Part shown: positions 1-64,000 of the stretch, in pieces
Position numbering within the stretch: position 1 is the first letter of the stretch
Layout of the letters: each line of letters starts with the position of its first letter
Source: an uncultured Pseudomonadales bacterium
GTDB taxonomy: Bacteria; Patescibacteriota; Microgenomatia; UBA1400; CAYXSR01
Assembly (NCBI GenBank): GCA_964467735.1
Contig: CAYXSR010000002.1
Span: 51,885-115,884 of the forward strand
Direction: 5' to 3'
DNA: 64,000 bases
Translations under genes and position numbers: made by a program
Notes under the pieces: model-generated
The model's database searches: none
Seen by the model: only the letters and a program-made list of their open reading frames with translations
What the model was told of the DNA's origin: nothing

Positions 1-610
1 TTGGGTTAATTAATTGGATTTCCTGCTGAGCCTCATCGAGTTTTTTAATTGACTCATCTATTTGAGGCATTATTTTATCTAATGTTTCAACTATTTTAAC
101 TAACCGTTCCTCTGTACTGCCTCCAGAAAAACTACCTTTACCTTTAAAACCCAAAACGTCAGCATAAGGAGCAATCGCTCCGGTTAAAATTTCTCCTGCC
201 TCTATTCCTTTTATAGCGGCATTTAAACCTCTCTCACCATCCTTATAATAATTATTAAAAAATGGAATAATCTTTAACCAAGATAAAATCCGATAAGCTT
301 TTTTTGTCTCTTCTAATTTAGTTTTGGTGGCTTTTAACTTTTCATCTGTCTGAATTAAATCTTGTTCTTTTACTGAATTATAAGCTTCTTGACCTAAAGT
401 TAATGCTTGTTTAGCTTTCGCAATTACCGGTTTTGTCATTAAAAAGCAAATTCCTGAAAAAACCAATAAAAAACCAATAACAATTATTAAAATTTTCAAC
501 CACTTCTTTTTAGTCTTTGGTTTTATTGGATCGACTAAGGATTCACTCTTATTAATTTTTGGTTGGTTATTTTTAGCTTCAAAATTTATTTTTCCTATTT
601 GTTCTACCAT
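1..610 (-). CDS. Hypothetical membrane-anchored protein (partial; C-terminus lies beyond the window start)
   Basis: Minus-strand frame open from ATG at 610..608 to the window edge (my manual translation: MVEQIGKINFEAKNNQPK...WLKILIIVIGFLLVFSGICFLMTKPVIAK...). There is one N-terminal TM helix followed by a hydrophilic domain. It is not in the supplied ORF track, presumably because it runs off the edge. Its start overlaps the stop of the upstream sugar transferase by a few nt, which suggests co-transcription. Confidence 0.4.
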   Translation of the reverse strand, partial: MVEQIGKINFEAKNNQPKINKSESLVDPIKPKTKKKWLKILIIVIGFLLVFSGICFLMTKPVIAKAKQALTLGQEAYNSVKEQDLIQTDEKLKATKTKLEETKKAYRILSWLKIIPFFNNYYKDGERGLNAAIKGIEAGEILTGAIAPYADVLGFKGKGSFSGGSTEERLVKIVETLDKIMPQIDESIKKLDEAQQEIQLINP

Positions 611-1224
611 TTGCTTATCATTGCTTTTGGCGTTTTTAATAAAATAAGTAAATCTTGCCAAAAAGAATGACTCCTTGCATATTTATAATCCATTCTAGCA
701 CGTTTATCGAAAGGAATCTCGTTCCTTCCGGAAGTTTGCCATGGCCCGGTTATCCCTGGCTTAACTGATAAAATTGTTTTTATTAAAGGTTTTGTTTTGG
801 GATATTTTTTAACTTGTTCTTTTAATTCCCTTTCAACATAAGCTCTTGGACCAACAATACTCATCTCTCCTTTTAAAACATTCCATAATTGAGGAAATTC
901 ATCAATCGTCAAATTTCTCAATAATCTTCCTAACCTTGTAATTCTCGGGTCATTTTTAAGCTTCCAATCACCTTTTTTAAATTTTTTTAAAAGTTCTTTA
1001 TCTTTTTCAAAAAGAATTTCATCAGCATTCTCCACCATTGTTCTGAATTTATAAAGCTTAAATTTCTTTCCTTTTTTACCTAATCTTTCATGGCTATAAA
1101 TAATTGATCCCTTTGACTGAAGTTTTATTAAAATAGGGACTATAAACCAAATTGGAAAAAAAATTACCGCCAAAAAAAGAGCTAAACAAATATCTATAAT
1201 TCTTTTTACACACTGATAATTCAT
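604..1224 (-). CDS. Polyprenyl-phosphate sugar phosphotransferase (bacterial sugar transferase, PglC/WbaP-C-domain type; initiating enzyme)
   Basis: 206 aa with a single N-terminal TM helix, then the family motifs KFRTM..NAD, DEFPQLWNVLKGEMSIVGPR, and KPGITGPWQ. These are the classic Bac_transf signature. Confidence 0.8.
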   Translation of the reverse strand: MNYQCVKRIIDICLALFLAVIFFPIWFIVPILIKLQSKGSIIYSHERLGKKGKKFKLYKFRTMVENADEILFEKDKELLKKFKKGDWKLKNDPRITRLGRLLRNLTIDEFPQLWNVLKGEMSIVGPRAYVERELKEQVKKYPKTKPLIKTILSVKPGITGPWQTSGRNEIPFDKRARMDYKYARSHSFWQDLLILLKTPKAMISKW

Positions 1225-1227
1225 AAG

Positions 1228-2316
1228 TTACTTTTCATAAAGGTTTTTATAAAGTTGCTTTACTTTCGGGGCCTGATCAAGTGGGCAAACTAACAAACCT
1301 TCAGCCGTATCAATAACAATTATATTGGAAAGACCAATTATTCCGGCAATTTTTTTATCCCGAGAAAAAATTAAAGAATTTTTAACATCTATTAGTTCTG
1401 TTTTACCAAGAATCACATTGCCATCTTTGTCTTTAGGTAAACCATAATAGATTAATTCCCAAGTTCCAAGATCTACCCAACCAATATCAACTGGTAATTC
1501 CCACTGTGTACCAGGTTTTAGTTTTTCAAACACGCCAAAATCAACTGAATTTTTCTCAATCTTAGGATATTCTTTATTAAGAACCTGAGTGTATTTGCTC
1601 GTCCCCATTGAGTCTGCAATTTTCTTTATTTTCTTGTAACAATCGGGTGCATGCTCTTTATATTTTTCCAACAAAAGTTGAGGTTTTGTTGCCATATAGC
1701 CAGAGTGAATTAAATATGTTTTGGCAGCTAAAAACTTTTTAGCAGTTGGCAAGTCTGGTTTCTCTACTTGTTTTAAAAACTCATAAACTTCAAACCCATC
1801 CTCACTTCTAAGTTTTTTACCAATTTTTATCCAACCGTTGTGGACTGATGGATAGGTTGGTTTCATATCTATGTGAACTACAACATTATTATCTCTTGAC
1901 AGTTGAGCAGCTTTTTTTAAGGCACTAACAAATGCTTTTTCTTTCCTAACTAAATGGTCCGCTCCCCAAAGAATAATCATTACTGAATTAGGGAATTTAT
2001 GGTTAATTGTGGCCGTCGCCAAAGCCACCGCTCCCAGGGTATCTCTCATCTCTGGTTCAAAAATTATATTTTCCTGGGGAATCTCTGGAGCATGTTTTCT
2101 AATAATTTCTTTATAGTCTTTACCAGTCGAAATGAATATATCCTCGGGACTAAAACCTTTTAATACTCTCTCGAAAGCCTGGCGGAAAAATGATTTTTCA
2201 CCTAAGATTGGACCAAACTGCTTAGGATGACCTATTTTGCTTATTGGCCACATCCTTGTCCCTCGACCACCACAAAAGAGGACTATCTTTGTGTCATTTT
2301 TTCCTGTCTTTTTCAT
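1228..2316 (-). CDS. manC: Mannose-1-phosphate guanylyltransferase (GDP-mannose pyrophosphorylase)
   Basis: N-terminus LFCGGRGTRMWPISKIGHPKQF (GGxGTRLWPxS...PKQF is the ManC/CpsB-type nucleotidyltransferase signature); 362 aa, so no PMI domain. Confidence 0.65.
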   Translation of the reverse strand: MKKTGKNDTKIVLFCGGRGTRMWPISKIGHPKQFGPILGEKSFFRQAFERVLKGFSPEDIFISTGKDYKEIIRKHAPEIPQENIIFEPEMRDTLGAVALATATINHKFPNSVMIILWGADHLVRKEKAFVSALKKAAQLSRDNNVVVHIDMKPTYPSVHNGWIKIGKKLRSEDGFEVYEFLKQVEKPDLPTAKKFLAAKTYLIHSGYMATKPQLLLEKYKEHAPDCYKKIKKIADSMGTSKYTQVLNKEYPKIEKNSVDFGVFEKLKPGTQWELPVDIGWVDLGTWELIYYGLPKDKDGNVILGKTELIDVKNSLIFSRDKKIAGIIGLSNIIVIDTAEGLLVCPLDQAPKVKQLYKNLYEK

Positions 2317-3413
2317 ATATCCTCCACTAGTTTTTTAATTTTTTTAATAAAGACTTTCTGATTAAATCTTTTGACATTTTGTTGGCAATCTTTGGCTTTA
2401 AAATTTTTGGCCTTAAACTGCTGAACGGCTTGAACTAGACCTTCTACTGTTTGATTTTCAAAAAGAATACCCGTTTTACCATCAATAACTGTTTCTCCAA
2501 AACCTCCTTTAGTAAAAGCAATTACTGGCTTTCCCGCCGCTTGAGCCTCTATTGCCACTAGACCAAAATCTTCATTTTGAGCTAAAACTACTGCACAACA
2601 CTTTTGATAATAACCAATTAAAATATCATCTGTCAATTGACCAAGAAATTCGATATTATCTTTTGCCATACGTTTTAGTCTTTTTAGCTGATTACCGACG
2701 CCAATAATTTTTAATGGAAGCCTCAGTTTATTAAAAGCTTTAATCACTAAATCTAGCCTTTTATAGGGGACAAGTCTCGAAACTACCAAGAAAAAGTCTT
2801 TTTGGCTGGGTAAATTAGCAATATCCTTCTTCTTAAATCTTTTTATATCAACAGGTGGATAGACAATGATAGAATCTCTATTGTAGTATTTTTTAATTCT
2901 TCTTTGGGTCGTTCGGGAAATAGCTAAAAATTTATCTGGACGTTGAGCAGCAACATAGTCCCATTTTTTAAGAATTGGGGCTAAAAGATTAAAAATTTTT
3001 TTAACTAAGAAATTAAAATTATTAAAACCAGCATTGCCTATATAGTCTTTATATCCCGACCATAAATATCGAGTTGGTGTAAGACAATAACAAATATGAT
3101 TTGTTTTGGTATTGGTAATAACTCCTTTCGCTTCAGCACTAGTAACAGAAATAACTAGTTCAAAATCAGAAAAATCAAAAGATTCAAAAGCAAAAGGTGT
3201 TAACCATGGATAAAACTCATGTTTTTCACTCGCAAATGGAAATTTTTGCATAAAAGAAGGAGTTATCTTAAATCCCTGTGTCCATAAAGCTTTTTTTTGA
3301 TTATAAACAGCAGTGAAAAAGGGTGCCTCTGGCCAGACTTCATGTAAAACTTGCAAGATCCTCTCTGCCCCTCCAATTTTATTAAGTCGATCATAAACAA
3401 TCGCTACTCTCAT
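2313..3413 (-). CDS. Glycosyltransferase family 4 (GT-B)
   Basis: C-terminal GT4 motif: VVSRLVPYKRLDLVIKAF...EDFGLVAIEAQAAGKPVIA. Confidence 0.75.
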   Translation of the reverse strand: MRVAIVYDRLNKIGGAERILQVLHEVWPEAPFFTAVYNQKKALWTQGFKITPSFMQKFPFASEKHEFYPWLTPFAFESFDFSDFELVISVTSAEAKGVITNTKTNHICYCLTPTRYLWSGYKDYIGNAGFNNFNFLVKKIFNLLAPILKKWDYVAAQRPDKFLAISRTTQRRIKKYYNRDSIIVYPPVDIKRFKKKDIANLPSQKDFFLVVSRLVPYKRLDLVIKAFNKLRLPLKIIGVGNQLKRLKRMAKDNIEFLGQLTDDILIGYYQKCCAVVLAQNEDFGLVAIEAQAAGKPVIAFTKGGFGETVIDGKTGILFENQTVEGLVQAVQQFKAKNFKAKDCQQNVKRFNQKVFIKKIKKLVEDI

Positions 3414-4567: not shown

Positions 4568-4573
4568 TTTAAA

Positions 4574-5467: not shown

Positions 5468-5482
5468 ATTATTTTAATTCCT

Positions 5483-6664
5483 TTAAATTTCTCGATAAAT
5501 TTTGTTAAGGTCTTTGGCAATGTTATACCAATCATACCTTTCAAAAACTAATTTTTGGGCAGCCTTGCTTATATTATTGTTTAAAGTTTTATTTTCTAAA
5601 AGCTCTATCGTCTTCTCTACCATGTCATTTTCATCACTACCAACCAAAACATGTTTTCCTGATTGAAGATCTATCCCCTCAATACCCAAAGGAGTTGTTA
5701 CGACAGAAACCCCCGCCGCCATTGATTCCAAAATTTTATAACGCGTCCCTCTTCCTAGTCTTAGTGGGGCTATCAAAACATCGGCTATAGAAAAAATGTC
5801 TCTTATATCTTCAATATTCTCTTTCAAAACTACCCCTTCTGTTTTTTTAATCAATTCCGCAAGAGACATTGATGGATTCTTTCCAACAATCAAAAGTTTT
5901 GCATTGGGTATCCTTTGATAAATCTTTGGCCAAATTTCTTTAACAAGAAAATTCACCGCATCGCTATTTGGTAACCAGCTAAAATTCCCAACAAAAATAA
6001 CAAGCGGATTTTTTTGTTTTTGTTTCTTAATTTTCTCAAAAAAATCTCTATCGATTCCGTTGGGAATTAATACAACCTTTCTAAAAGAAATTTTCTCCAT
6101 AATTTTTTTGTCTTCTGTAGAAACTGCGATCAATTTTTCACTCCTTTTCCAATAATATTTCTCCCAAAAAATAAGCTTTAATAAATCAAAGTATAGAAAT
6201 GGCTTTAATAGAAGATTTTTTTTATCTATATATTTTCTAAAAACCAAATACTCTATATTGTGTTCTGCTAATACTAATGGTGGTTTTTTAACTCCTAGTA
6301 AGGATAATAAGACATAAAATGTCTCCGAGCTAATTAAATCATAATTATTTAAAAGCTCTTCCTTTAGTAATTTTCTAGCTTTTAAAGAAAAATAACTAAT
6401 CATTAAAAGAGGAAATGGCGAAAAGGCAGTTAAAAAAAGATTGAATAAAGACCAAATATTTCTCCTTCTAACGTAAATTACTTTATGACAAATTTTTTCC
6501 ACCTCAGATATATATTTTTCTTCATTGTCTCTTAAAAAGGTAAAAAGAGTAATTTCGTGTTGCTGAGAGATGTTTCTCAATAAATTATAGGCACGAATTC
6601 TGCCACCACTAATTAAAGGATAAGGTAAAACCGGAGAAACAAACAGGATTTTCATTTTTGACAA
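5483..6664 (-). CDS. Glycosyltransferase family 4 (GT-B)
   Basis: C-terminal PLRLGRGTRYKILESMAAGVSVVTTPLG is GT4-like. Confidence 0.7.
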   Translation of the reverse strand: MSKMKILFVSPVLPYPLISGGRIRAYNLLRNISQQHEITLFTFLRDNEEKYISEVEKICHKVIYVRRRNIWSLFNLFLTAFSPFPLLMISYFSLKARKLLKEELLNNYDLISSETFYVLLSLLGVKKPPLVLAEHNIEYLVFRKYIDKKNLLLKPFLYFDLLKLIFWEKYYWKRSEKLIAVSTEDKKIMEKISFRKVVLIPNGIDRDFFEKIKKQKQKNPLVIFVGNFSWLPNSDAVNFLVKEIWPKIYQRIPNAKLLIVGKNPSMSLAELIKKTEGVVLKENIEDIRDIFSIADVLIAPLRLGRGTRYKILESMAAGVSVVTTPLGIEGIDLQSGKHVLVGSDENDMVEKTIELLENKTLNNNISKAAQKLVFERYDWYNIAKDLNKIYREI

Positions 6665-8079
6665 TCTACCAGTTTAGCAATTATATAATCGTCAGTCTTT
6701 TCAAGAACACAAAACTTTTGTTCTATATATTCAGTTTCTGGACCAAAATCAAAATTAACATAATGAGTGGCTCCTTTACTAATAAGTTTATCTATTTCTA
6801 TTCCCTGAGGCCAACCATCTCTATTAATTTGATATAAAAAGGCAGTATCACCACCCAAAGGAGCAATCACTTTTGCTTCTTTGGGTAAAATTTCATCTGC
6901 TCTTCGTCCAGCAGTAATCATCTTAAAATTATTAATATTGAAAAAATCCCTAACTTGATACCAAGAAAATGCCCACATAAAAACAAAACATATAAAAAGA
7001 AATAACTTAGAAAAAACTTTTCTAAATTCTTTTATTGGAGCAAGTATCACTTTTGCTCCTTTACCAAGAAAAACGCAAATTACTGGCACCAAAAGTATTT
7101 GGTAATAATCATGCTGAATGTTGCCCCTTGCTACAACAATAAGATAAACAAGGGTCCCTAACAACCAAAAATCAAAGAACCTTCCTTCTTTTTTTTCTGT
7201 TTTGGCAATAATTCCTAGTATAAAAATAACTATTCCCCAATATCCCAAAATTAATTTGCTCAATCTCTCGGCAAATAACCACCTAAACCAAGCTGGCTTT
7301 AAACGCATTCCACCGGCATTTAAAAGCCACATATTTGCCGGAATACCCTCGGGAAAATGATTAATCCACCATCGCCACCATAAAAAAGGAACTATTGAAA
7401 TCAATAAATAAGTCCCTGTAAAAAAAAGTGACCTTGTTAATCCCTTTTGTCTCCAAAGTAAATAAAAAATACTGGGGGCAATAATAAATAAAGTAAATGG
7501 TTTGATCAATATAGAAATAGCTGTAAAAATTAGGAAATTACCTAAATATATCTTGCTATTTTTTCTAATAAATCTTAAAAAAAAGTAAATAGCTCCTAAC
7601 ATTGTCATAATCATCATTGGTTCTGGAAGAATTACTCTTGAATAATAAATATTAAAAGGAAGAACGGCAAAGAAAAAACTAGCTAATAATGCCATAGGAA
7701 AATCAATCAAATCTTTGACAATAAAAAATAGAAAAATTAAACTAAAACAGGAAAAAATATTAGAAATTAGTCTTCCCCATATCTCAAGACTAAAAAAACT
7801 CAGATTCTTTGCCAAAAAGGCATGAACAATATTATAGCTTGGAAATTCAACAAACCGATAGCCTTCTGGATTATCTTTTCCGGATGGAATATTAGAAAGG
7901 TCATTAAAACGAGGGTGTAAGATATCAAATCCTTTTTGAACAAAACTTCTTGAAACTGCTGAAGTATCAGCTTGGCGCCAGGAATGCCAATCAGCTATTG
8001 GGTTTCTAATCCTATACAATCTAAGGATAAAATTGATTAAAACAATTACAGATAATAATATAATCTGCTTTTTATTCAT
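6652..8079 (-). CDS. Polytopic membrane glycosyltransferase, GT-C fold (ArnT/PMT-like, lipid-carrier dependent)
   Basis: 475 aa with about 11 predicted TM helices. The first extracytoplasmic loop carries a conserved acidic motif (HSWRQADTS...) like the loop of GT39/GT83 enzymes. The N-terminal motif pattern resembles ORF 57844..59304 (GWESARD). Confidence 0.45.
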   Translation of the reverse strand: MNKKQIILLSVIVLINFILRLYRIRNPIADWHSWRQADTSAVSRSFVQKGFDILHPRFNDLSNIPSGKDNPEGYRFVEFPSYNIVHAFLAKNLSFFSLEIWGRLISNIFSCFSLIFLFFIVKDLIDFPMALLASFFFAVLPFNIYYSRVILPEPMMIMTMLGAIYFFLRFIRKNSKIYLGNFLIFTAISILIKPFTLFIIAPSIFYLLWRQKGLTRSLFFTGTYLLISIVPFLWWRWWINHFPEGIPANMWLLNAGGMRLKPAWFRWLFAERLSKLILGYWGIVIFILGIIAKTEKKEGRFFDFWLLGTLVYLIVVARGNIQHDYYQILLVPVICVFLGKGAKVILAPIKEFRKVFSKLFLFICFVFMWAFSWYQVRDFFNINNFKMITAGRRADEILPKEAKVIAPLGGDTAFLYQINRDGWPQGIEIDKLISKGATHYVNFDFGPETEYIEQKFCVLEKTDDYIIAKLVDCQK

Positions 8080-11000
8080 TTACTTCTATTATCTCATCGC
8101 CTAAATATTCTTTTAGATTATTCTGTTCATCAAAAACAAAAACATAAGTTGGTAAAGTCGATTTTTTATAATCCTTAGCGCTTTCTAATTCAGAAACTTT
8201 AACAACCCCTAATGTCTGATCACGGTAGATAAACCATAATGCATCTTCTAATCCTACTGGAAAAACCCAAGCATTTTCATATTTTATGGGAACGTTTACA
8301 AAACAAAGTGTTGCTCCCTCTGGAAATTCAAGATAATTATCTTTTAAGGCTCTTAGTGTTGTATAGGAAATATCAGAGGCTTTACTCCATTGCTGAAGCT
8401 GCCTGATAGTCAATTTTATAAAATAAATTGATAGAAACAATGATGTTAAAATTAAAAACACCATCCTGATTTTATATCTCCTTACCCTGTAGACAAAAGA
8501 AACCAAGACAAATGCCAGAATTGCACTAAAACCAAAAGAAGCTAAATAATTATAACGAATACTTATATTGCCCAGTCCCAAAAACGGCAATAGACTAATA
8601 AAAGATAAGGAAAAGAAGAAAAATATTATCTTTCCATCGATATAAACTTTTGATAGCTTCACATTTAATCTTTTTTTCAATTTTAAAATTATAACAGTAA
8701 TAAAAATTAAAATTATAACAAACCAAAAAATATGTTCTCGCCAAAAACCTCTTAGGTTCTGATAGAAAGGAAGAAATTCTGTTCCTAAGATAGTTAAACC
8801 AAGATATCCAAATAAATTACCCACAAAGTTAATTGGTAGTTTTAAAAAGTTATAATTGTAATCACCCGATAACCAATGAGAAGAGGCTATTAAACGCATA
8901 AATAGATAAAAGGCTGCTTCGGCACCAAAAAGAAGAACAAAAATAAAATCCCTTTTATCTTTCTTACTGAAAAGAAATACAAGTAGACATAGAAGAGGAA
9001 AAACTATTCCTGATTCATGAGAAAAAAGCGCCAGTAAGCCCAAAATTGATATTAAAATTAAAAATATTATCCTTTCAAAAGATTTGTTCGTTTGTAAAAA
9101 ACGAAACCAAAAATAAAGTCCCCAGATAGTAAACAAAGCAGAAAGGGCAATCATTATCCCTGAGCTCCAAACAACAGTCTCTATTTGGGAAGGAATAATG
9201 GTGAAAAATAAAGCTGCTAAGAAAGCAGTTAGTTTTCGTCCGGTATATTTTCTGGTCAATAAAAATACTCCTAAAGCGGTAAAAAGATGAATAATTATAC
9301 TTGTTGCATGATAACCAAATGGTTTTAGCCAAAAAATAGAATAAAGAAGGAAAAAATAGATTTTTCCAATCGGTCGATAGAAAAAACCAGCTGCGTCAAT
9401 AAATGGCAAATAAATATCTTTAAAAGAAAAGTTTGCTCCCCATTTCAACCAGGTAAAATCGTCACCAATAAAATAATTATTTAAACTGCCAGAATATAGC
9501 AACAAACCAACAATACAAATAAAAATAAAGAGAATAAAAGGAGAAGTAATAAATTGTTCAATGTTTCTTTTCAAATCAATCTTTCGACTAGAGTTAAAAC
9601 TAATAAAAATCCCCATTAAAATACCGATAAGAGGCCAAACTGTAAAGGCCACCTTAGAGGCTTCAAAAATATCAATCATTAAAGCATTTATTGCAACTCC
9701 AAATATACCTCCTAAAATTCCTGCTGCCATACTTTTAAAAAATGAGTCTTTTATTGAAGAAAAAGCTTTCTTTGTCCAAAAATAAATCAACAAAAATATA
9801 CTAAGGAAGCTAAGTAGGCCTAATAGTCCCGTCTCTCCCAACGTTCGTAAATAACTATTATCGGTTGCTAGAGAAATTGAAGAATAACCAGAGCCTGTTA
9901 ATATATTTCTTTTAAAAGCATTTATTGCTCTCGGCCATGTTCCTTGAAATCTTGTTGTAAAAGAAATGTCATACACTAATGCCTTTTGGATTAAAAAACT
10001 ACCAGAAATTGTTGCGATCTCGCTTGCTTTAGTAGCCACTTCTAAAGTCTCATATAGAGGAGTAGCAATTTTCTTTTTTATCACCGCCACTGAGGTGGCG
10101 GCTGGACTATCTTCTAGACTTGTAGGAGGCAAGGCAATAAAACCAGTGCCCAAAGGTAGATCTTCTTCAGCAACTTCATCTTCTTCGGTGATAACTTTTC
10201 CCAATTTTTCAATATCCTCTAGTTTGGCAATTGGCTTCCCCGTTACTTTATCATAAACAACATTTTCTACTCTAAAAGTTTTACTTAATCTTTCTGACAT
10301 TTGGCCGACAGAATTGCTCAGAAAAAAACTAATAAGAATAACTGGAATAATAAATTTTTTCTGTTTCAGTAAAACTAAAACTAAACTAATCGCTAACAAA
10401 TAAACTAAAAAAGAAACTCTTGAGGCCGTCAACAACAATAACTCATAAGCACCGATAAATAAAATAAAATAAAAGATTTTAGCTAACTTATTTTTAATAC
10501 CAAAAAAAAGGGCCCCAAACAAAGAAAGCATCAATACCAAGTAGGCTGCCAAGTCGTAATGTCCGCCAAAAGTAGAAGTAATTCTGTTGTTTGGGCCAAG
10601 TCTTAGAGGAATACCTTTAGCAAATTCCTCGTTCATAGTTAGATAAGCAGGCAAACCCATAAACTTCTGACCAAAACCATAAATTATAACTCCCACCAAA
10701 CCAATAATAATCGCCACCAAATAAAATTTAATTAATTTGTTATTCTCTTTCACTGTGGTGTAAACAAAGAAAAAAGGAATTATATATTCTATGCGTCGCA
10801 AATAATGAAGAATGGATACATTTGGAAAAAAATTAGCTAAGTGGGGTGCTAAAAAAATTAAAGCTACAACAGTAGATAGCAACCCTACTAACCAATAAAT
10901 AAATATTGCCCCTGTCAGAGGAGTCCTCAACCGATCTCTATTTCTTACAACCTTTGCTAAAAAAATAATTGTTAAAAACGCAACCAGTAAATCTTCTATT

Positions 11001-54563: not shown

Positions 54564-55620
54564 GAGTAAATAGGGCGGTTAAAATAATTGAAAGCAGCAA
54601 ACTTAGAACAACTACCGTGTTGTAAATTTTATTATTTTTAATACAACCAATTAAAATAAAAACACTAAAAGCCGGAAGCACATATCTTGGTATAGAAGAA
54701 AAAGTTCCGGTTAAAGTGGGTAAGATAATTATTAATATTGAAAATAATCCATAAGATTTCCTAACCTTAAAGTATGAAATAATGGCTAAATACAAGAATG
54801 AAATCGCCATAACAAATTCTAAAATCGCAATCCAAAAATCATAACTTTTAACCGGAACAGTGAAAAAGATCTTCAGATAACGCCAAATAACTTGATAAAT
54901 AAGGACTAATCTACCACCAGATCGATTGGCTCCAAAGGCTGGCTGAGCATGAAAGAAAAATAAAGGATCCTGTACGTTTTTCCAAAGATAAGACATATAA
55001 GAAAAAAGTCCTAATGGAATAAGTATTAACCAAGAAAGGTCTTTAAGGTATCTCTTTTTTTTAATTTGTTCTTTCCATTCTATAATTAAAGCCAATAGTA
55101 AAATTATTCCTATTAGTCTTGTAGCACTCGCCAAGCAACCAAGAACACCAGCTAACCACCATTTTTTCTTTCTTACCGCATAAAAACTTCCCAATATCAA
55201 TGCTAAAAACAATGATTCTGTATACACTGAAGCAAAGAAAAATGAGGTAGGAAAGATTAACAATAAAAGTAGACTTCTTTTTGCAACCTTTTTGTTGAAA
55301 TCAAGCCTTACCAACTTAAATAGTAAAACAAGACTAATGAAGAATGAAAAATAAGAGATAACAAAAGCGCTTAATAAAAAATTATGACCTAAGAAAAATG
55401 ATAGTTTTTTTATTAACCACGGATATAAAGGGAAAAAGGCCTGCTCATATTGAACATAACTTATCTTTGCAATTGATAAATAATGCAGGCCGTCAAAATT
55501 GGCCCAGACTGATGGCCCTAAAAATCCCAAACGTTGGGGAATAAATCTTTTTGCTAACAAGGAGATTATTTCTAAAAAAATTCTCCAAAATGTTAAACTA
55601 GCAATAATAAACCAATGCAT
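54544..55620 (-). CDS. GT-C-like membrane mannosyltransferase-family protein (PIG-V/GT87-like)
   Basis: VWANFDGLHYLSIAKISYVQYEQAFFPLYPWLIK resembles the W..wDg.hYl.IA..GY...FfPlyP signature of PIG-V-type mannosyltransferases; about 9 TM helices. Confidence 0.45.
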   Translation of the reverse strand: MHWFIIASLTFWRIFLEIISLLAKRFIPQRLGFLGPSVWANFDGLHYLSIAKISYVQYEQAFFPLYPWLIKKLSFFLGHNFLLSAFVISYFSFFISLVLLFKLVRLDFNKKVAKRSLLLLLIFPTSFFFASVYTESLFLALILGSFYAVRKKKWWLAGVLGCLASATRLIGIILLLALIIEWKEQIKKKRYLKDLSWLILIPLGLFSYMSYLWKNVQDPLFFFHAQPAFGANRSGGRLVLIYQVIWRYLKIFFTVPVKSYDFWIAILEFVMAISFLYLAIISYFKVRKSYGLFSILIIILPTLTGTFSSIPRYVLPAFSVFILIGCIKNNKIYNTVVVLSLLLSIILTALFTRGWWVS

Positions 55621-56698: not shown

Positions 56699-57847
56699 CT
56701 ATTTTTTCGTTCTTTTTTTAAACTTAATTCTAAAATTTGCTAGAAATTCTTTTATCCCCCATAATCCTAAAACATAAGTAAAAGGCAGTAGCGGCAGTAA
56801 ATAGCGCGCATTTGCCTGGTTTAAAGATAAAAATAATAAATAATTAAAAATCCAGATCATAACTACTTCTGCTGGCATATTTTTTTGAATTTTTTTAAAT
56901 AAATAAGCTGTAATTGTTAGTAAACTTATTCCTGTACCTAGGGGCCAAAACAGTTGCCAAGTGACTTCTTTAACAACCTCGCTATCCCCCCACCATGTTT
57001 GCCACTGATTTAAAAATATTAACTTCCAGACCGTAAAAGGATAAATAGACTTACTCTTATGATAAGCAAATAACCATTTTTGAATTCTTAAAACGTCTAG
57101 AGGATTTTTGCCTTCTTTAAAAATAGCAATGTAGCTTAATATCAGTATTAATAATGAAAAAGTCAATGAATATAAAAGAAACTTTAATGATTTTATATCT
57201 TTTTTCATTATTAAAAGAAGAATGAAGGCAAAAAGAAGAATTAATCCTGTTATGAAAAACTTAACTCCAAATATAACTCCTATAAAAATACTGACAAGAA
57301 TAAAAAAGGCAATTTTTTTCTTCTGAAGCGCTTTGATAAAAAAAAGAATCGATAACGAAATAAAGGTAAGCTGGATAATGTCTAGAAGTGGAGTATTCTC
57401 AAACTGACGTAAAAATAGCTTTTCAAAAGAAAGAACAAGTATTGGCAATAAAGCAAATAAATTATCTCGCATTATCTTTTTGCCGATAAAAAATAAAGAC
57501 AACAGAAACACCAAACCAAAGATAATAATTGCAATGTTTTCATTATTAAATAACAAAACAGAAAGAGAAAGAAAATACTTTCCTAAAGGAGGCTGTGTGC
57601 TCTGAATAACTGTTGGATTTGCGCCTTTTAAGTACTCGCCAGCCGCATAGGAATAAAGTATTTCATCCGGAACCCACCCGACTGGATTTTTTATAGCATA
57701 CTGCGAATTCCAATATGAAGTTTTATAAAACTCAAATCTGTCCCAATATTTATACAAATATCTATCTTTAAAGGAATATATATATTTCCCAAAATTAAAA
57801 AAACAGATAATTAGTATAATAAGAAATATAACACCCTTTAGCTTCAT
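56699..57847 (-). CDS. ArnT/PMT-family GT-C membrane glycosyltransferase (short form)
   Basis: First loop GWVPDEILYSYAAGEYLKGANPTVIQSTQPPLGKYFLSL matches the DE..Y...A...(K)PPL.Y loop of GT83/GT39 enzymes; 382 aa with about 9 TM helices. Confidence 0.5.
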   Translation of the reverse strand: MKLKGVIFLIILIICFFNFGKYIYSFKDRYLYKYWDRFEFYKTSYWNSQYAIKNPVGWVPDEILYSYAAGEYLKGANPTVIQSTQPPLGKYFLSLSVLLFNNENIAIIIFGLVFLLSLFFIGKKIMRDNLFALLPILVLSFEKLFLRQFENTPLLDIIQLTFISLSILFFIKALQKKKIAFFILVSIFIGVIFGVKFFITGLILLFAFILLLIMKKDIKSLKFLLYSLTFSLLILILSYIAIFKEGKNPLDVLRIQKWLFAYHKSKSIYPFTVWKLIFLNQWQTWWGDSEVVKEVTWQLFWPLGTGISLLTITAYLFKKIQKNMPAEVVMIWIFNYLLFLSLNQANARYLLPLLPFTYVLGLWGIKEFLANFRIKFKKRTKK

Positions 57848-61599: not shown

Positions 61600-61611
61600 C
61601 CGCTATTCTTA

Positions 61612-63237
61612 TTATATCTTGAAAATGTGAAGGATCGGTTCTCCATTTAAAAGATAAATTGTTTTTATAATTTTTGCGTCTCCCGGCAATTCTTTATCTG
61701 TGACTACCCACCATATTTTATCTCTTTTATCTTCTTTTTCCCAATCAAATCGAACAAATTCATATTTGCCGATTTTGTGTTCTTCCCAAAAGCCACCCGA
61801 TATAGTACCACCTTGCTCTAAATATTTTGCCGGATTATACTTTTTATAAAATAGAAAAAACATATAAGGTTGTTCTGCTTCGATTGAAATCCTAACCTTC
61901 TCATATTTATTTTCTAATTTCTCTAACTCTTTGAAAAGTTCTTTATACCCATATTGCCAATAACGAGAATATTCTATTGGTTGATGAATATGATATTGAT
62001 GTAAATAAAAAATAAAATTGACTAGAAAGAGACCTGTTGTTACAAAATAGATTATAGCTGTTATTAATTTGTTCTTTAAACTATTGCCCCATCTAATAAA
62101 TGCCAATACTCCTAAAGCAGTGAAAACATGCCATGTTGGTAAGAAACATAAAGTCCGAACTGCATGAGGGACATCAGCCGAAACAGAAGCAGCAATAGGA
62201 GCCAGTAACCACCAACTAAAAATAATTAATTTTGGTTTCTTATCTGGCCAAAAGAAAAGAGAATAAATTCCCCATAAAATAAAAGGTAACTCCCAAAAGT
62301 AAAGCATTCCGACATCGGGAACGTGATGTCTTTGAACATCTCCTTCTCCATTAACAAATAGCCAATTTGGATTAAAATGAGCCGTATAACTTTCTAAGAA
62401 TCTTAGAACATAACGAATTCGTCGATTATGAACCAACGAACCCCACCAAATTCCTTTTTCTAAATCTTGGCTTATTTTTTTACTATCTTTAGACAATAAG
62501 TTAATTGTGTCAGAAAAAGCACTTACTCCCTTTAATCTCATTTGTCCTTCTGTGCTCGTCATAATTTTTACCAATGGCCAAATAAAAATTAAAGCAATAA
62601 TTCCGCTTAACAAAACTATTTTCTTTATTTTCAAAAGTTGCCTGAAATAAGTCATTATTAGAACCAAAACTAAAAACGGCACAAATACTCTGGCGCTATG
62701 ATAAGTGTATAAAGCTAATCCGAAAGACAATGTTGAAAGTAGTAGGAAGAATTTATTTTTTTTGACTGATTTTAAGAATAATATCGTCCCTAAAATTTCC
62801 CAAGCCAAAGCAACGTTTGCCTCAAAAGCAATTCGAGAAAACTGCAAATGCCAAGGTGAAATCGCCATAAAAAACATGGATAAGAGTGCTAAATTTTCTT
62901 TCTTAAACAACAGTTTTATTAAAAAGTAAACACCAATAACGCCAATTACTCCAAAAACTGCTGATGGTAAACGAACCGCAAAAAGATTTACTCCGAAAAC
63001 AATTATTGAAGGAATTGTTAAATAAAAATATAAAGGTGGCTTATAATCGTCAAAAGATCGAAAAGTCAACGGAAATTTCACTCCATATTCGTCTTTTCCT
63101 GTTTTCCAAATTGAATAGGCATTCCAGCCAATAGCTGCTTCATCCCAATCAGGACTAGGTGGCACTTTCGCCAGATTCCAGAATCTTAAACCAATCGCTA
63201 AAGCTAAAATTAAAATAAAAATAATTTTTTTTCTCAT
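61612..63237 (-). CDS. ArnT/PMT-family GT-C membrane glycosyltransferase (GT39/GT83-like)
   Basis: RFWNLAKVPPSPDWDEAAIGWNAYSIWKTGKDEYGVKFPLTFRSFDDYKPPLYFYLT (DE..Y...KPPLyfy signature); about 12 TM helices plus a C-terminal soluble domain. Confidence 0.7.
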   Translation of the reverse strand: MRKKIIFILILALAIGLRFWNLAKVPPSPDWDEAAIGWNAYSIWKTGKDEYGVKFPLTFRSFDDYKPPLYFYLTIPSIIVFGVNLFAVRLPSAVFGVIGVIGVYFLIKLLFKKENLALLSMFFMAISPWHLQFSRIAFEANVALAWEILGTILFLKSVKKNKFFLLLSTLSFGLALYTYHSARVFVPFLVLVLIMTYFRQLLKIKKIVLLSGIIALIFIWPLVKIMTSTEGQMRLKGVSAFSDTINLLSKDSKKISQDLEKGIWWGSLVHNRRIRYVLRFLESYTAHFNPNWLFVNGEGDVQRHHVPDVGMLYFWELPFILWGIYSLFFWPDKKPKLIIFSWWLLAPIAASVSADVPHAVRTLCFLPTWHVFTALGVLAFIRWGNSLKNKLITAIIYFVTTGLFLVNFIFYLHQYHIHQPIEYSRYWQYGYKELFKELEKLENKYEKVRISIEAEQPYMFFLFYKKYNPAKYLEQGGTISGGFWEEHKIGKYEFVRFDWEKEDKRDKIWWVVTDKELPGDAKIIKTIYLLNGEPILHIFKI

Positions 63238-64000
63238 TTAATTAGTATAAATATAGAAAACTACTTCTCCATTCAAAAGATAAATCGTTTTTAATAAATC
63301 AACTTTATCTAACTGAGTCTCTCCTTTCGTCATTACATATAGAACTTTTCCCTTCCTATCTGTTTCTATTTGCTCTCCGAATCTATATTTATCAAAACCC
63401 AAAACCTTCCTTATCCCAAAAGGTTCAATCTCTTCAGTTTTATTCTGCCAAAATTTTTGAGGAGGATATTGTTGGTAAAAAAGGAAATAAATATAAGGCC
63501 TTCCTAAGCTTCGTGTTACTATAATATGATCATATTCATCCTGGACAGATTTAACAAAATCTACCATTTGTTTATAACCATATTGCCATTCTGAGGAATA
63601 TTCATTAGGATAATGAACAAAATAATTATGAAGAAAACGAAAGGCTGAAAAAAAGTAAAAAACTATTAAAGAAACAGCTCCTAGCTTTATAAAAGAAGGT
63701 TTAAGAAGTCTAAAAAATTTATAAATTCCATAAGCAATAAATATCTGATAAGTGGGTAATATTACTTCTGTTCTTAAAGCATGAGGAGTTTCTCTGGCAG
63801 TGGCAGCTGGGACTAATGCTGCAATTAACCAAAAAAATAAAAATCCAATATTTTTTTGCTTGTCCTTTATTAAATAAATAATTCCTAAAATTAAAAACGG
63901 CAGTTCTATCAAATAAAGTTGCCCTGTTTCTTGACTAGAAAAACGAGGATTTCTGTCACCAGTAAAGAATAAAAATTTTGGATTAAAATGATCAAAAAGA
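63238..64000 (-). CDS. ArnT/PMT-family GT-C glycosyltransferase, tandem paralog (partial; N-terminus beyond window end)
   Basis: The track ORF starts at an internal TTG (63912), but the frame stays open to position 64000 (...LFDHFNPKFLFFTGDRNPRFSSQETGQLYLIELPFLILGIIY...). This is colinear with HFNPNWLFVNGEGDVQRHHVPDVGMLYFWELPFILWGIY of 61612..63237. The C-terminal domains are also paralogous (KTIYLLNGEVVFYIY parallels KTIYLLNGEPILHIF). Confidence 0.65.
   Translation of the reverse strand, partial: LFDHFNPKFLFFTGDRNPRFSSQETGQLYLIELPFLILGIIYLIKDKQKNIGFLFFWLIAALVPAATARETPHALRTEVILPTYQIFIAYGIYKFFRLLKPSFIKLGAVSLIVFYFFSAFRFLHNYFVHYPNEYSSEWQYGYKQMVDFVKSVQDEYDHIIVTRSLGRPYIYFLFYQQYPPQKFWQNKTEEIEPFGIRKVLGFDKYRFGEQIETDRKGKVLYVMTKGETQLDKVDLLKTIYLLNGEVVFYIYTN

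Follow-up and report, generated by a model that had tools for sequence, protein, structure and literature searches.

The stretch of DNA analysed here, a window of 64 kb, is over its whole length a gene-dense locus for sugar-polymer assembly, and its unusual feature is that more than a third of its length is given over to membrane glycosyltransferases acting outside the cell membrane, among them a large unclassified family closest to mycobacterial AftD. Thirteen polytopic proteins of the GT-C type take up 23.5 kb, or 37% of the window, alongside 20 cytoplasmic GT-A/GT-B enzymes (by Pfam, 11 GT2 and nine GT4); an earlier note had put these classes at about 13 and about 20, and both figures stood, with 11 of the 13 directly supported as GT-C by homology or fold and with g13 and g46 as weak cases. 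The rival reading, that the polytopic reading frames are transporters, is contradicted by the matches: none of the 13 matched a transporter family, and the sole transporter-type match in the window is the Wzx-like flippase, which that note had listed separately.

Gene content and setting of the locus

From the open reading frame listing and a reading of both ends, the window holds 55 complete genes, including a conserved frame of 76 aa, and two more that are cut by its ends. Coding sequence makes up 98.95% of it, 33 of the 51 same-strand neighbour pairs overlap, GC content is 28-35%, and neither tRNA genes nor Rfam matches were found within the 64 kb. Pfam also identifies four class-I SAM methyltransferases and two hexapeptide acyltransferases/acetyltransferases, exactly the numbers claimed previously, and the three nucleotide-sugar routes, one phosphoglycosyltransferase for initiation and one Wzx-like flippase described before are all present. 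The claim that housekeeping genes are absent holds up as well, as the only candidate, the class-I aminotransferase g31, overlaps the YerE-like gene g32 by 4 nt and is therefore probably part of a sugar pathway. Cytoplasmic glycosyltransferases, methyltransferases and acyltransferases are as follows (strand in brackets, then best family scores):

2313..3413 (-): g3, GT4 (GT-B); Glycos_transf_1 111.5 bits
3410..4567 (-): g4, GT4; Glycos_transf_1 104.8, Glyco_transf_4 43.7 bits
4574..5467 (-): g5, GT2 (GT-A); Glycos_transf_2 72.2 bits
5483..6664 (-): g6, GT4; Glyco_trans_1_4 89.9 bits
11103..12086 (-): g9, GT2; Glycos_transf_2 94.9 bits
11998..12591 (-): g10, hexapeptide-repeat O-acetyltransferase, WcaF-like; Hexapep 59.4, NCBIfam WcaF family 101.5 bits
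12557..13681 (-): g11, GT4; Glycos_transf_1 127.5 bits
13675..14745 (-): g12, GT4; Glycos_transf_1 123.3 bits
26394..27056 (-): g19, SAM methyltransferase; Methyltransf_11 54.5 bits
27194..27742 (-): g20, SAM methyltransferase; Methyltransf_11 68.3 bits
27759..28910 (-): g21, GT4; Glycos_transf_1 78.5 bits
28907..29935 (-): g22, GT2; Glycos_transf_2 73.5 bits
29935..31116 (-): g23, GT4; Glycos_transf_1 77.5 bits
31065..32267 (-): g24, GT4; Glycos_transf_1 96.7 bits
32243..32923 (-): g25, SAM methyltransferase; Methyltransf_23 89.4 bits
32908..33510 (-): g26, hexapeptide-repeat acyltransferase; Hexapep 52.5 bits
33507..34535 (-): g27, GT2; Glycos_transf_2 100.6 bits
34561..35268 (-): g28, SAM methyltransferase; Methyltransf_23 62 bits
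42398..43426 (-): g35, GT2; Glycos_transf_2 102.5 bits
43601..44455 (+): g36, GT2; Glycos_transf_2 93.6 bits
51511..52554 (-): g43, GT2 with C-terminal TM segments; Glycos_transf_2 64.9 bits
52529..53287 (-): g44, short GT2, candidate polyprenyl-phosphate sugar synthase; Glycos_transf_2 79.7 bits
55629..56675 (-): g47, GT4; Glycos_transf_1 113.1 bits
59301..60077 (-): g50, short GT2, possible polyprenyl-phosphate sugar synthase; Glycos_transf_2 72.4 bits
60077..60856 (-): g51, short GT2; Glycos_transf_2 62.2 bits
60853..61599 (-): g52, short GT2; Glycos_transf_2 80.5 bits

Two further genes have counterparts in a related locus, L081, that is 81-83% identical; the one at the window start delimits the locus on its left:

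1..610 (-): DUF4012-type membrane-anchored protein, N-terminal part, cut by the window start
14742..14972 (-): small membrane protein of 76 aa, conserved

The frame of the former is open from an ATG near 610 to base 1 and encodes helical sequence after a single TM segment; Pfam gave no match on the 203-aa fragment itself, and at the matching position L081 carries a 675-aa DUF4012 protein (PF13196) and then RecO. The latter matches a 76-aa gene in place, with the motif LFYLKIFFTAQRL common to both. Almost all homologues and syntenic loci belong to Microgenomates-group Patescibacteria (Collier-, Shapiro-, Levy-, Woese- and Gottesmanbacteria, and entries named 'Microgenomates group'), a taxonomy that supports an uncultivated small-genome bacterium of that group, within the candidate phyla radiation, as the source, in keeping with the lineage guessed previously.

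Membrane glycosyltransferases of the GT-C type

The Pfam cut-off for PMT_2 (26.1 bits) is reached by five proteins, g7, g40, g48, g49 and g53, listed here with a g53 paralogue and four proteins assigned by other evidence:

6652..8079 (-): g7, PMT_2/ArnT-like GT-C, about 10 TM segments; PMT_2 48.7, PMT 24.9 bits
47632..49458 (+): g40, PMT_2 GT-C with a C-terminal TPR domain (Pfam)
56699..57847 (-): g48, PMT_2 GT-C; 39.4 bits
57844..59304 (-): g49, PMT_2 GT-C, about 8 TM segments; 26.1 bits, exactly the cut-off
61612..63237 (-): g53, PMT_2/ArnT-like GT-C; PMT_2 59.5, PMT 31.1 bits
63238..64000 (-): g54, PMT_2-type GT-C, C-terminal part, running off the window end
8072..11149 (-): g8, 1025-aa Wzy_C-like/PMT_2-like fusion, about 20 TM segments (Pfam, blastp, hhalign)
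16412..17641 (+): g14, 409-aa GT-C-fold protein of a family without a Pfam model (AF2 model, Foldseek)
54544..55620 (-): g46, 358-aa polytopic protein, probable GT-C
14999..16411 (+): g13, DUF2079 polytopic membrane protein, putative GT-C; 147.9 bits

In g40, PMT_2 (29.3 bits) covers residues 132-273 and TPR_1 (134.8 bits) residues 460-600, an architecture shared with TMTC-type protein O-mannosyltransferases. The alignment places a WDEA motif after TM1 of g53, and g54, whose frame is open to base 64000, matches the C-terminal half of g53 (residues 316-539, E 6e-34). The fusion protein g8 joins an N-terminal half of the Wzy_C (O-antigen polymerase/ligase) type, where Wzy_C scores 17-18 bits on residues 394-449, below its cut-off, to a PMT_2-like GT-C half that matches g40 by blastp (3e-13) and the PMT_2 set by hhalign (96.9%). 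Its homologues at 40-50% identity have PF04932 recorded in many cases and PF13231 in few, and the family, of at least 1590 members, goes in Patescibacteria by the name 'O-antigen ligase family protein'. For g14, the AF2 model (pLDDT 93.6) found only GT-C structures among its best 33 Foldseek matches in the PDB (STT3, PglB, AglB, ALG3, Pmt4, ALG9, Emb, AftD and AftB; TMq 0.34-0.58), while hhalign against the PMT_2 set gave 86% and one homologue carries PF13231.

The two weak cases are g46 and g13. In g46, which has 7-9 TM segments, PMT_2 (21 bits) and PIG-V (18.6 bits) each fall below cut-off, and the NCBIfam 'cell surface glycopolymer formation protein' model scores 32.9 bits. In g13, which has at least six TM segments and a GGFDLGLFDQ motif after TM1, hhalign to the window's PMT_2 set was negative; we take its family, DUF2079, to be a member of the GT-C clan.

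Three large proteins, g15, g17 and g18, form one GT-C family without a Pfam model, adjoined by a small membrane protein:

17592..19649 (-): g15, 685-aa AftD-like GT-C, short form
19646..20026 (-): g16, 126-aa protein with 4 predicted TM segments
20019..23492 (-): g17, 1157-aa AftD-like GT-C
23497..26415 (-): g18, 972-aa AftD-like GT-C, paralogue of g17

Judged by the AF2 model of g17 (pLDDT 76.5), this family is most similar to mycobacterial AftD, the closest solved structure, which gives substance to an analogy with mycobacteria that had been drawn from the sequence: the top three Foldseek matches are AftD (6wbx, 6wby, 6w98; E 1e-11, aligned over the full length), followed by CBM-type domains and AglB. 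The modelled layout begins with about 11 TM segments in an N-terminal domain, to which are added a helical bundle, extracytoplasmic beta-sandwich (CBM-like) domains and a C-terminal TM segment. By sequence, g17 matched neither Pfam nor the PDB; hhalign to the PMT_2 set gave 92.7%, and in the first loop D46 is conserved almost without exception. The top match of the family profile is g18 (blastp to g17: 36.6% identity, E 5e-95), and g15, which has no Pfam match, aligns with the family by hhalign (99.3%, E 1.5e-20, 388 columns). Pfam gave nothing for g16 with the threshold relaxed to E<=1. It always adjoins genes of the g17 family, with homologues of 111-115 aa at the matching position in L001 and L003, and may be a flippase or partner for a lipid-linked donor.

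Nucleotide sugars, initiation and export

The nucleotide-sugar genes are:

1228..2316 (-): g2, mannose-1-phosphate guanylyltransferase (ManC), making GDP-mannose; Pfam NTP_transferase and ManC_GMP_beta-helix, NCBIfam GMP_PMI 222 bits
35258..36502 (-): g29, RfbH/E1-type CDP-6-deoxy-4-keto-hexose 3-dehydrase; DegT_DnrJ_EryC1 312.5 bits
36508..37551 (-): g30, SDR epimerase/reductase; Epimerase 113.4 bits
37554..38717 (-): g31, class-I (aspartate-type) aminotransferase; Aminotran_1_2 217.8 bits
38714..40531 (-): g32, YerE-like ThDP-dependent sugar C-branching enzyme; all three TPP domains
40647..41615 (-): g33, CDP-glucose 4,6-dehydratase-like SDR; GDP_Man_Dehyd 182.8 bits
41606..42385 (-): g34, glucose-1-phosphate cytidylyltransferase; NCBIfam G1P_cyt_trans
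44452..45408 (+): g37, SDR epimerase/reductase of the 6-deoxy-HexNAc route; Epimerase 144 bits
45383..46219 (+): g38, SDR reductase, WbcJ/RmlD-like; Epimerase 115.3 bits
46216..47631 (+): g39, UDP-GlcNAc 4,6-dehydratase, PglF/CapD/PseB-like (FnlA-like); Polysacc_synt_2 390.2 bits

The NCBIfam RfbH equivalog model matches g29 at 621.6 bits, above its cut-off of 423, while g34 reaches 262.7 bits over its full length (cut-off 300) and g33 211.9 bits with its best NCBIfam model, CDP_4_6_dhtase (cut-off 278). The 3,6-dideoxyhexose route claimed from the sequence is present, but its product is unlikely to be a plain dideoxyhexose, because the YerE-like g32 in the route makes a C4-branched, yersiniose-like sugar probable. 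The second PDB match of g32, 5ahk (265 bits), bears the deposited name acetolactate synthase II and is presumably PpYerE, a YerE homologue; with plant acetolactate synthases the score is about 248 bits, and a GDG motif stands at residue 457. The best match, 8rph (415.5 bits), is JanthE, a YerE-like enzyme (PMC12188165; PMC12247030). With generic NCBIfam matches only, g30 is a candidate YerF-like ketoreductase, and g31, for which the NCBIfam models of aspartate aminotransferases reach 300-330 bits, short of the cut-off in every case, could possibly supply the 2-oxoacid donor for g32. NCBIfam gives PseB 203.5 and FnlA 160.6 bits for g39, and the UDP-2-acetamido-2,6-dideoxy-hexulose reductase WbcJ 77 bits for g38.

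Initiation, export and a further module are represented by:

604..1224 (-): g1, small initiating polyprenyl-phosphate phosphoglycosyltransferase; Pfam Bac_transf 213.6 bits
49488..49976 (-): g41, 162-aa protein, 4 predicted TM segments
49973..51451 (-): g42, B12-binding radical SAM enzyme, HpnJ-like; Radical_SAM 73.5, B12-binding 43.9 bits
53271..54563 (-): g45, Wzx-like (MOP-type) flippase, about 11 TM segments; Polysacc_synt 28.1 bits (cut-off 28.2)

Among NCBIfam models, g1 is matched on its catalytic domain only, at 252.9 bits by EPS_sugtrans and at 247.4 bits by WbaP, and g45 also has a weak MatE match. Among the short GT2 enzymes, g52 is the best candidate for a polyprenyl-phosphate sugar synthase (NCBIfam AglJ 74.7, PpgS 66.2, dolichyl-phosphate hexose transferase 52.7 bits, none of which reaches its cut-off); the best NCBIfam models for g44 are PgfS, ArnC, PpgS and AglJ (37-52 bits, all below cut-offs), and the weak NCBIfam matches of g50 include AglJ and dolichyl-phosphate hexose transferase. 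In the g43-g42-g41 module, g43 has TM segments at residues 253-335 and PDB matches to TarS-type GT2 in the N-terminal domain only. The NCBIfam HpnJ model gives g42 187 bits, below cut-off, and homologues of 50-61% identity are present in L002, L003, L035 and L065. This enzyme may be a C-methylase or catalyse a rearrangement, with a sugar or lipid as its substrate. No Pfam match was obtained for g41, whose homologue in L065 adjoins the radical SAM gene.

Relatives and modularity of the locus

The window falls into five transcription blocks, and the modules in these blocks are shuffled from one relative to another. Several modules that cooperate are therefore more likely than the earlier reading of one glycosylation island with one product, even though the gene-dense locus itself stands; the substrates, the acceptor and the chemical nature of the product we infer. 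The high GT-C density was likewise correctly noted but is not peculiar to this genome: clusters of several GT-C genes recur in related genomes of Microgenomates-group Patescibacteria, so that this density is a trait of the lineage and the locus is typical of it.

Layout and borders of the locus

The window is most probably (we would put it at roughly 0.78) one continuous super-locus for surface-glycan assembly, composed of several co-located modules, in a Microgenomates-group member of the CPR. Established directly are the protein families, folds and topology class of its products, as well as the gene order and its conservation in relatives; the pathway itself we infer. The GC content lies between 28 and 35%, the coding density is 98.95%, and neighbouring genes overlap in 33 of the 51 same-strand pairs. 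An ORF listing combined with a six-frame reading of both window ends gave 55 complete genes and 2 genes cut by the edges. Genes are numbered g1 to g54 from left to right, except for one small ORF and a partial ORF at the left edge, and lie in five strand blocks.

Strand blocks of the window and one unnumbered small gene
604–14972, minus strand: genes g1 to g12
14742–14972, minus strand: conserved small membrane protein of 76 aa with the motif LFYLKIFFTAQRL, in the apparent 230-bp gap upstream of g12
14999–17641, plus strand: genes g13 and g14
17592–43426, minus strand: genes g15 to g35
43601–49458, plus strand: genes g36 to g40
49488–64000 and beyond, minus strand: genes g41 to g54

Families were assigned by a Pfam scan of every ORF, including all 55 complete genes, and by an NCBIfam scan of selected sets. 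By Pfam, the window encodes 20 cytoplasmic GT-A/GT-B glycosyltransferases (11 GT2 and 9 GT4), four class-I SAM methyltransferases and two hexapeptide acyltransferases. The only phosphoglycosyltransferase is g1, a 206-aa Bac_transf protein (213.6 bits), and the only Wzx-like (MOP-type) flippase is g45, whose Polysacc_synt score of 28.1 bits falls 0.1 bit short of the 28.2 cut-off. Three nucleotide-sugar routes are represented by the ManC protein g2, by the CDP-hexose enzymes g34, g33 and g29, and by a UDP-GlcNAc 4,6-dehydratase (g39) accompanied by the SDRs g37 and g38. All of these numbers match those counted in the earlier note, made by reading the sequence alone. Scans of the window found no tRNA and no Rfam match, and no rRNA or ribosomal-protein marker lies within it. 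The same note had stated that no housekeeping gene interrupts the array, and the sole candidate for one is g31, a class-I aminotransferase that probably belongs to the sugar pathway, since its gene overlaps g32 by 4 nt.

Both ends of the locus appear to lie outside the window. L081, a related metagenome contig held at ENA, has DNA 81–83% identical to the window and is collinear with it from g14 through g1; a gene for the 76-aa protein is also called there at the equivalent place. Past g1, the truncated ORF at the window start (1–610, minus strand) has as its L081 counterpart (15681–18231 region) a 675-aa DUF4012 membrane protein, which is followed by RecO; the glycan locus therefore has its left border only a little beyond the window start. 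The DUF4012 gene adjoins that of the phosphoglycosyltransferase g1 and may itself be part of the system. On the right, g54 (63238–64000, minus strand) is listed as a 224-aa ORF starting from TTG, yet its frame is open to base 64000, so that the locus continues past the window end.

GT-C proteins and the AftD-like family

Besides the flippase, a hydropathy scan picked out 13 large polytopic proteins, the products of g7, g8, g13, g14, g15, g17, g18, g40, g46, g48, g49, g53 and g54, whose genes together account for 23.5 kb, 37% of the window. A crude Kyte-Doolittle predictor gives 6 to 20 transmembrane (TM) segments for all except g54, which is truncated by the window edge. The Pfam PMT_2 cut-off is reached by g7, g40, g48, g49 (exactly at it) and g53, and g40 carries a C-terminal TPR domain as well. 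The match of g54 to the C-terminal half of g53 (E 6e-34) identifies it as a further PMT_2-type gene, an edge-cut paralogue. For g46 there are sub-threshold matches only, to PMT_2 (21 bits) and PIG-V (18.6 bits). The g13 protein matches DUF2079 at 147.9 bits, a family that we take to be a member of the Pfam GT-C clan; comparison of g13 with the PMT_2 set of the window by hhalign gave no relation.

Profiles of the g14 and g17 families searched against the PDB by sequence returned only chance coiled-coil matches or nothing, so that fold comparison was needed instead. The g14 protein (409 aa, without a Pfam match) has an AlphaFold model with a pLDDT of 93.6, with an alignment of 30 homologues, and its top 33 Foldseek matches in the PDB are all GT-C structures, namely STT3, PglB, AglB, ALG3, Pmt4, PIG-U, ALG9, EmbA/B, AftD and AftB (TMq 0.34–0.58). 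Against the PMT_2 set, hhalign gave 27% for the single g14 sequence and 86% for the family profile. Acidic residues stand in the first loop of several proteins, as WDEA in g53, SDDV in g40, GDDF in the C-terminal half of g8, GGFDLGLFDQ in g13 and D61 in the g14 family, and are not obvious in g7, g46, g48 and g49. The g17 family has a nearly invariant D46 in its first extracytoplasmic loop, together with other conserved loop residues.

Three of the proteins, g15, g17 and g18, form a family of their own. By blastp g17 and g18 share 37% identity, and g15 matches the g17-family profile at 99.3% (hhalign). None of the three has a Pfam match even at E≤1, AftD (PF11847) and Emb models included, and they are not members of the Pfam AftD family because the match to its model fails. 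The AlphaFold model of g17 (pLDDT 76.5) nonetheless has the AftD structures 6wbx, 6wby and 6w98 as its top three Foldseek matches, at E 1e-11 and probability 1.00 over a full-length alignment, which favours the analogy with mycobacterial assembly drawn in the earlier note. The AftD structures are followed by CBM-like domains and by the archaeal oligosaccharyltransferase AglB, and the CBM22 and CBM16 matches map to the β-sandwich region of g17. Judged from the model, g15, g17 and g18 would share the architecture of AftD, a GT-C membrane domain joined to a large external domain bearing CBMs, while lying outside PF11847. One distant g17 homologue, P0051, does carry PF11847, and aligns to just 11% of g17.

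The N-terminal membrane domains of g17, g18 and g15 were combined into a profile, and its search against 1.84 billion representative proteins retrieved 4082 clusters (at 50% identity) at E≤1e-3, 1811 at E≤1e-10 and 267 at E≤1e-30. Most of these clusters are g15-like, at about 650–690 aa, and Pfam gave no match to the N-terminal membrane domain of the ten family members sampled. The family is accompanied by small proteins: g16 (126 aa, four TM segments) adjoins the g17-family genes, its homologues lie beside such genes in the related loci L001 and L003, and ORFs of 95–118 aa without a match lie beside them in L011, L032 and L035. Neither g16 nor the similarly small g41 matches GtrA or any other Pfam family, and the two are unrelated to each other. 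The end of g17 (residues ~1000–1157, window 20019–20500) consists of a C-terminal β-sandwich and a terminal TM segment with the motif H[FY]x[VA]NGYAN. This module also occurs alone or in other architectures in the loci L030, L036, L054, L063, L066, L073 and L076, and is found in archaea (Bathyarchaeia, Methanosarcinaceae, Methanothrix) and many bacterial phyla, a spread so wide that it is not specific to the g17 family.

The g8 protein (8072–11149, minus strand) is a fusion of 1025 aa with about 20 TM segments, combining a Wzy_C-like half with a PMT_2-like GT-C half. Its C-terminal half matches g40 by blastp (3e-13) and the PMT_2 profile of the window by hhalign (96.9%), and its N-terminal half scores 17–18 bits against Wzy_C, under the cut-off. 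At least 1590 full-length members of the g8 family, of about 1000 aa and mostly from Patescibacteria of the Microgenomates group, are named 'O-antigen ligase family protein'. PF04932 is recorded in many of the homologues (40–50% identical over the full length) and PF13231 in a few, and the named homologues belong to Gottesmanbacteria, Shapirobacteria, Microgenomates and Patescibacteria.

Two readings would deny some or all of these proteins a glycosyltransferase role. According to one, the polytopic ORFs would be transporters or other membrane proteins unrelated to glycosyl transfer, an outcome that would have undone the GT-C count of the earlier note; it draws on the fact that annotation by Pfam and NCBIfam leaves 5 of the 13 (g8, g14, g15, g17 and g18) without a significant family match in single-sequence searches. 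All five are linked to GT-C proteins by profile-profile or fold comparison, however, and in the fold search with g14 transporters first appear at rank 34, below the 33 GT-C structures, with probabilities of at most 0.05. Homology or fold thus ties 11 of the 13 well to GT-C proteins and g46 and g13 weakly, none is transporter-like, the earlier figure of about 13 GT-C proteins stands, and the transporter reading, already largely refuted, is scarcely credible and was rejected. It is somewhat less improbable, if still quite unlikely, that g15, g17 and g18 are non-catalytic, serving as scaffolds or as transport and delivery proteins for lipids or glycolipids that share an ancestral GT-C-like fold. 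Such a role would suit a weak NCBIfam match of g15 to 'MmpA family trehalose lipid delivery protein' (28.1 bits, E 7.5e-7), global TM-scores of g17 against AftD of merely 0.39–0.42 with a large rmsd, and the lack of any match of the family to Pfam GT-C models. The MmpA score is, however, far under its 210-bit cut-off, the g17 family matches the PMT_2 core at 92.7% (hhalign), and the full-length Foldseek alignment to AftD and the near-invariant first-loop Asp with its conserved neighbours argue for glycosyltransferases, as does the fact that in many genomes the genes consistently stand amid those for GT2, GT4 and methyltransferase enzymes.

In species-representative genomes, the great majority of g17-family homologues belong to Microgenomates-group Patescibacteria, with record titles naming Collier-, Shapiro-, Levy-, Woese- and Gottesmanbacteria and 'Microgenomates group bacterium'. 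The taxonomy of these homologues points to an origin of the window in the Microgenomates group of the Patescibacteria/CPR, and the low GC content and overlapping genes fit that lineage; the suspicion of a CPR-like genome voiced in the earlier note is thereby supported. Copies of g17, g14 and g8 with 100% identity are all found on a single NCBI contig of 116,093 bp. Several MAGs with full-length g17-family genes bear titles such as 'uncultured Gammaproteobacteria bacterium' or 'Planctomycetia' (L008, L009, L010, L018, L023, L024, L027 and others); their gene content is Patescibacteria-like, and the record titles may be taxonomically mislabelled. In L001, a 788-kb contig of GCA_040960625.1, counterparts of g27–g22, a run resembling g18/g17/g16/g15, g13 and g12–g10 are present, mostly at 35–69% protein identity and in a module order partly unlike that of the window. 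More distant Patescibacteria loci hold 3–5 GT-C-like genes per 18–25 kb around a g17-family gene, in a sample biased by the choice of every locus for holding such a gene; GT-C genes are therefore repeatedly found at high density in the lineage, and not in this genome alone. Literature searches for GT-C enzymes, glycosylation or DUF2079 in CPR bacteria (Patescibacteria, Microgenomates) found nothing relevant; one paper on Saccharibacteria mentions polyprenol-phosphate-mannose-dependent mannosyltransferases (PMC6031116).

A probable branched dideoxyhexose route and the g41–g43 module

The CDP-hexose route is encoded in a single run on the minus strand (35258–42385). It comprises the DdhA-like g34, the DdhB-like g33, the SDR g30 and g29, which scores 621.6 bits as RfbH/E1, above the NCBIfam equivalog cut-off, and it includes g31 (37554–38717) and g32 (38714–40531). 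The g32 protein has three ThDP-enzyme domains and a canonical GDG motif. Its matches in the PDB are led by JanthE (8rph, 415.5 bits), a characterised YerE-like enzyme (PMC12188165), followed by 5ahk (265.4 bits) and by acetolactate synthases at no more than about 248 bits, and none of the NCBIfam acetolactate synthase equivalogs reaches its cut-off. Assignment of g32 as a housekeeping acetolactate synthase was rejected in view of its YerE-like best matches and its CDP-sugar neighbours.

YerE-like enzymes put acyl branches on CDP-4-keto-3,6-dideoxyglucose, giving yersiniose and erwiniose (PMC12247030). The presence of g34, g33, g29 and g30 in one run with a YerE-like g32 predicts a sugar of the same kind, and the product of the route is, by sequence comparison, probably a yersiniose-like, C4-branched 3,6-dideoxyhexose. 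The 3,6-dideoxyhexose named in the earlier note is thus retained, with a CDP-hexose route and RfbH present, in a probably branched rather than plain form. The cytidylyltransferase, 4,6-dehydratase, RfbH/E1, YerE-like enzyme and SDR in an operon-like run resemble the yersiniose/erwiniose route (DdhA-DdhB-DdhC/E1-DdhD/E3 with YerE and YerF). The run differs from that route in that no E3/DdhD-type iron-sulfur flavoprotein reductase occurs among the window proteins, that a class-I aminotransferase stands beside the ThDP enzyme, and that its host belongs to the CPR and not to the Gram-negative producers of LPS. This aminotransferase, g31, may supply the 2-oxoacid donor for g32.

A second group of modifying enzymes is encoded by g41–g43 (49488–52554, minus strand), where a GT2 with C-terminal TM helices (g43) is joined by a B12-binding radical SAM protein (g42, HpnJ-like at 187 bits in NCBIfam) and a 162-aa protein with four TM segments (g41). 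Parts of this module recur beside glycan genes in the related loci L002, L003, L035 and L065; the B12-radical-SAM gene of L001 is distant from g42, at 28% identity. Classification of g43 as a GtrB-type synthase was rejected, its PDB matches being to TarS-type GT2 enzymes only. The module may act on a sugar or lipid by C-methylation or rearrangement.

A proposed assembly route and its meaning

Taken together, these assignments suggest how the glycan could be made. GDP-mannose would be supplied by g2 and UDP-6-deoxy-HexNAc by g39, g37 and g38, while g34, g33 and g29 would form CDP-3,6-dideoxy-4-keto-hexose, to which g32 would add the C4 branch ahead of reduction by g30. The phosphoglycosyltransferase g1 would start the chain on polyprenyl phosphate, up to 20 GT2 and GT4 enzymes would extend it in the cytoplasm, and the four SAM methyltransferases, the two acetyltransferases and possibly g42 would decorate it, after which g45 would flip the lipid-linked oligosaccharide to the outer face of the membrane. 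There, the 13 GT-C-fold enzymes would extend and branch the glycan, or glycosylate proteins. Their putative donors are polyprenyl-phosphate monosaccharides made by the short DPM1/ArnC-like GT2s g44, g50 and g52, whose genes are interspersed with GT-C genes in the last block and which have AglJ, PpgS, ArnC, PgfS and dolichyl-phosphate hexose transferase as their best NCBIfam matches, all below cut-off; g16 and g41 are candidates for flipping these donors. The CBM-like external domains of g15, g17 and g18 might hold the growing polysaccharide, as has been proposed for mycobacterial AftD, and the Wzy_C-like half of g8 would polymerise the repeat unit or join it to its final acceptor. No LCP-type or otherwise recognisable ligase for attachment to peptidoglycan is encoded in the window.

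Parts of this scheme can be recognised in several known systems. Mycobacterial and corynebacterial arabinogalactan and LAM assembly (AftA-D, EmbA-C, MptA/B) likewise employs many GT-C enzymes outside the membrane on a lipid-anchored glycan begun in the cytoplasm, as the enzymes of the window would, and AftD, with its large external domain and CBM-like β-sandwiches, is the solved structure closest to the g17 model. The small 4-TM protein adjoining the GT-C genes also has a parallel in Rv3789, which is similarly placed in the mycobacterial cluster. Unlike the mycobacterial system, the window has neither Pfam AftD or Emb matches nor UbiA-type or DprE-type genes for decaprenyl-phospho-arabinose, its host is a small-genome CPR bacterium rather than an actinobacterium, and its genes are gathered in one 64-kb stretch and not scattered around the chromosome. 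The phosphoglycosyltransferase, nucleotide-sugar genes, GT2 and GT4 enzymes, O-acetyltransferases, Wzx-like flippase and Wzy_C-type protein recall the Wzx/Wzy loci for O-antigens and capsules. To our knowledge, ordinary loci of that kind hold no GT-C enzyme or a single one and span 10–25 kb, in contrast to 13 over 64 kb here, where the Wzy_C-like domain is moreover fused to a GT-C domain and chain-length regulator and export genes are not recognised in the window. Short DPM1/ArnC-like GT2s beside PMT_2 GT-C proteins, with small 4-TM proteins, are also a feature of three-component Gtr/Arn glycosylation, from which the locus is set apart by the absence of a GtrA match in g16 and g41, by the sub-cut-off scores of its GT2s and by far more GT-C paralogues than any Gtr/Arn locus has.

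Whether the locus makes one product, and whether that product is attached to protein, divides the main reading from two others. The possibility that mainly protein glycosylation is encoded, with most of the PMT_2 GT-C enzymes and a PglL-type Wzy_C domain modifying S-layer, pilin or other surface proteins rather than making a polysaccharide that is free or linked to the wall, is doubtful without being negligible. PMT_2 is the superfamily of protein O-mannosyltransferases and ArnT, the PMT_2 and TPR domains of g40 reproduce the architecture of the eukaryotic TMTC protein O-mannosyltransferases and so resemble PMT/TMTC protein O-mannosylation, the Wzy_C family also includes the PglL/PilO O-oligosaccharyltransferases, and the oligosaccharyltransferases STT3, PglB and AglB are the top fold matches of g14. 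These targets are, however, proteins of 640–860 aa (TMt 0.25–0.37), and g14, at 409 aa, is without their external peptide-binding domain; the CBM-like β-sandwich domains of g15, g17 and g18 point to glycan rather than protein acceptors, and the window contains no S-layer or pilin gene. Unlikely, and slightly more so, is the literal reading of the earlier note, by which the 50-odd genes would build one complex methylated and acetylated heteropolysaccharide in a single pathway. The uninterrupted array, 99% coding, with its one phosphoglycosyltransferase and one Wzx-like flippase, agrees with such a pathway and with the single island described in that note. Against a single product stand the five transcription blocks on alternating strands and the three nucleotide-sugar routes in three different blocks; moreover, GT-C enzymes with lipid-monophosphate donors require no phosphoglycosyltransferase of their own. 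In addition, g1–g12 are kept as a unit in L081, whereas in L001 g10–g13 adjoin the g15–g18 module and a second radical SAM gene, a difference in block placement which indicates that modules shuffle between relatives. Since the blocks are five, the modules shuffle and the sugar routes are separate, several cooperating modules in one island are likelier than one island with one product, and the super-locus of co-located modules is preferred.

As a kind, a surface-glycan biosynthesis locus is known, its sequences were already public and annotated as hypothetical proteins, and existing concepts are unaffected. New are the number of GT-C-type genes (13 in 64 kb), a large family of AftD-like proteins without a Pfam model, a conserved Wzy_C–GT-C fusion and an uncultivated small-genome host. 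The locus combines a Wzx/Wzy parts list with a preponderance of GT-C enzymes of the kind usually seen in mycobacterial arabinogalactan and LAM assembly and with a YerE-type operon known from Gram-negative O-antigens. On the assumption of a genome of roughly 1 Mb, taken from the 0.76–0.79-Mb contigs of relatives, the window would probably represent about 5–8% of the genome, all devoted to glycan assembly and with an investment skewed towards extra-membrane enzymes acting on lipid-linked donors, a strategy whose best-known examples are mycobacteria and the protein glycosylation of eukaryotes and archaea. The AftD-like GT-C family with its thousands of members, the Wzy_C–GT-C fusion and the compact YerE-type operon, the last for heterologous expression, are testable candidates.

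CPR/Patescibacteria account for a sizeable part of bacterial diversity, and their cell envelopes are almost uncharted experimentally. A wider proposal, which we hold only tentatively and at odds well below even, is that Microgenomates CPR bacteria, like mycobacteria, carry out most of the assembly of a complex envelope polymer beyond the cytoplasmic membrane, using an unclassified AftD-like GT-C family (at least 1800 clusters, with no characterised member) and a Wzy_C/GT-C fusion, and that this polymer contains a C4-branched 3,6-dideoxyhexose. If this were true, the AftD-like family would constitute a new CAZy glycosyltransferase family, and the glycan coat could be central to the host and phage interactions of these episymbiotic, lipid-auxotrophic cells.
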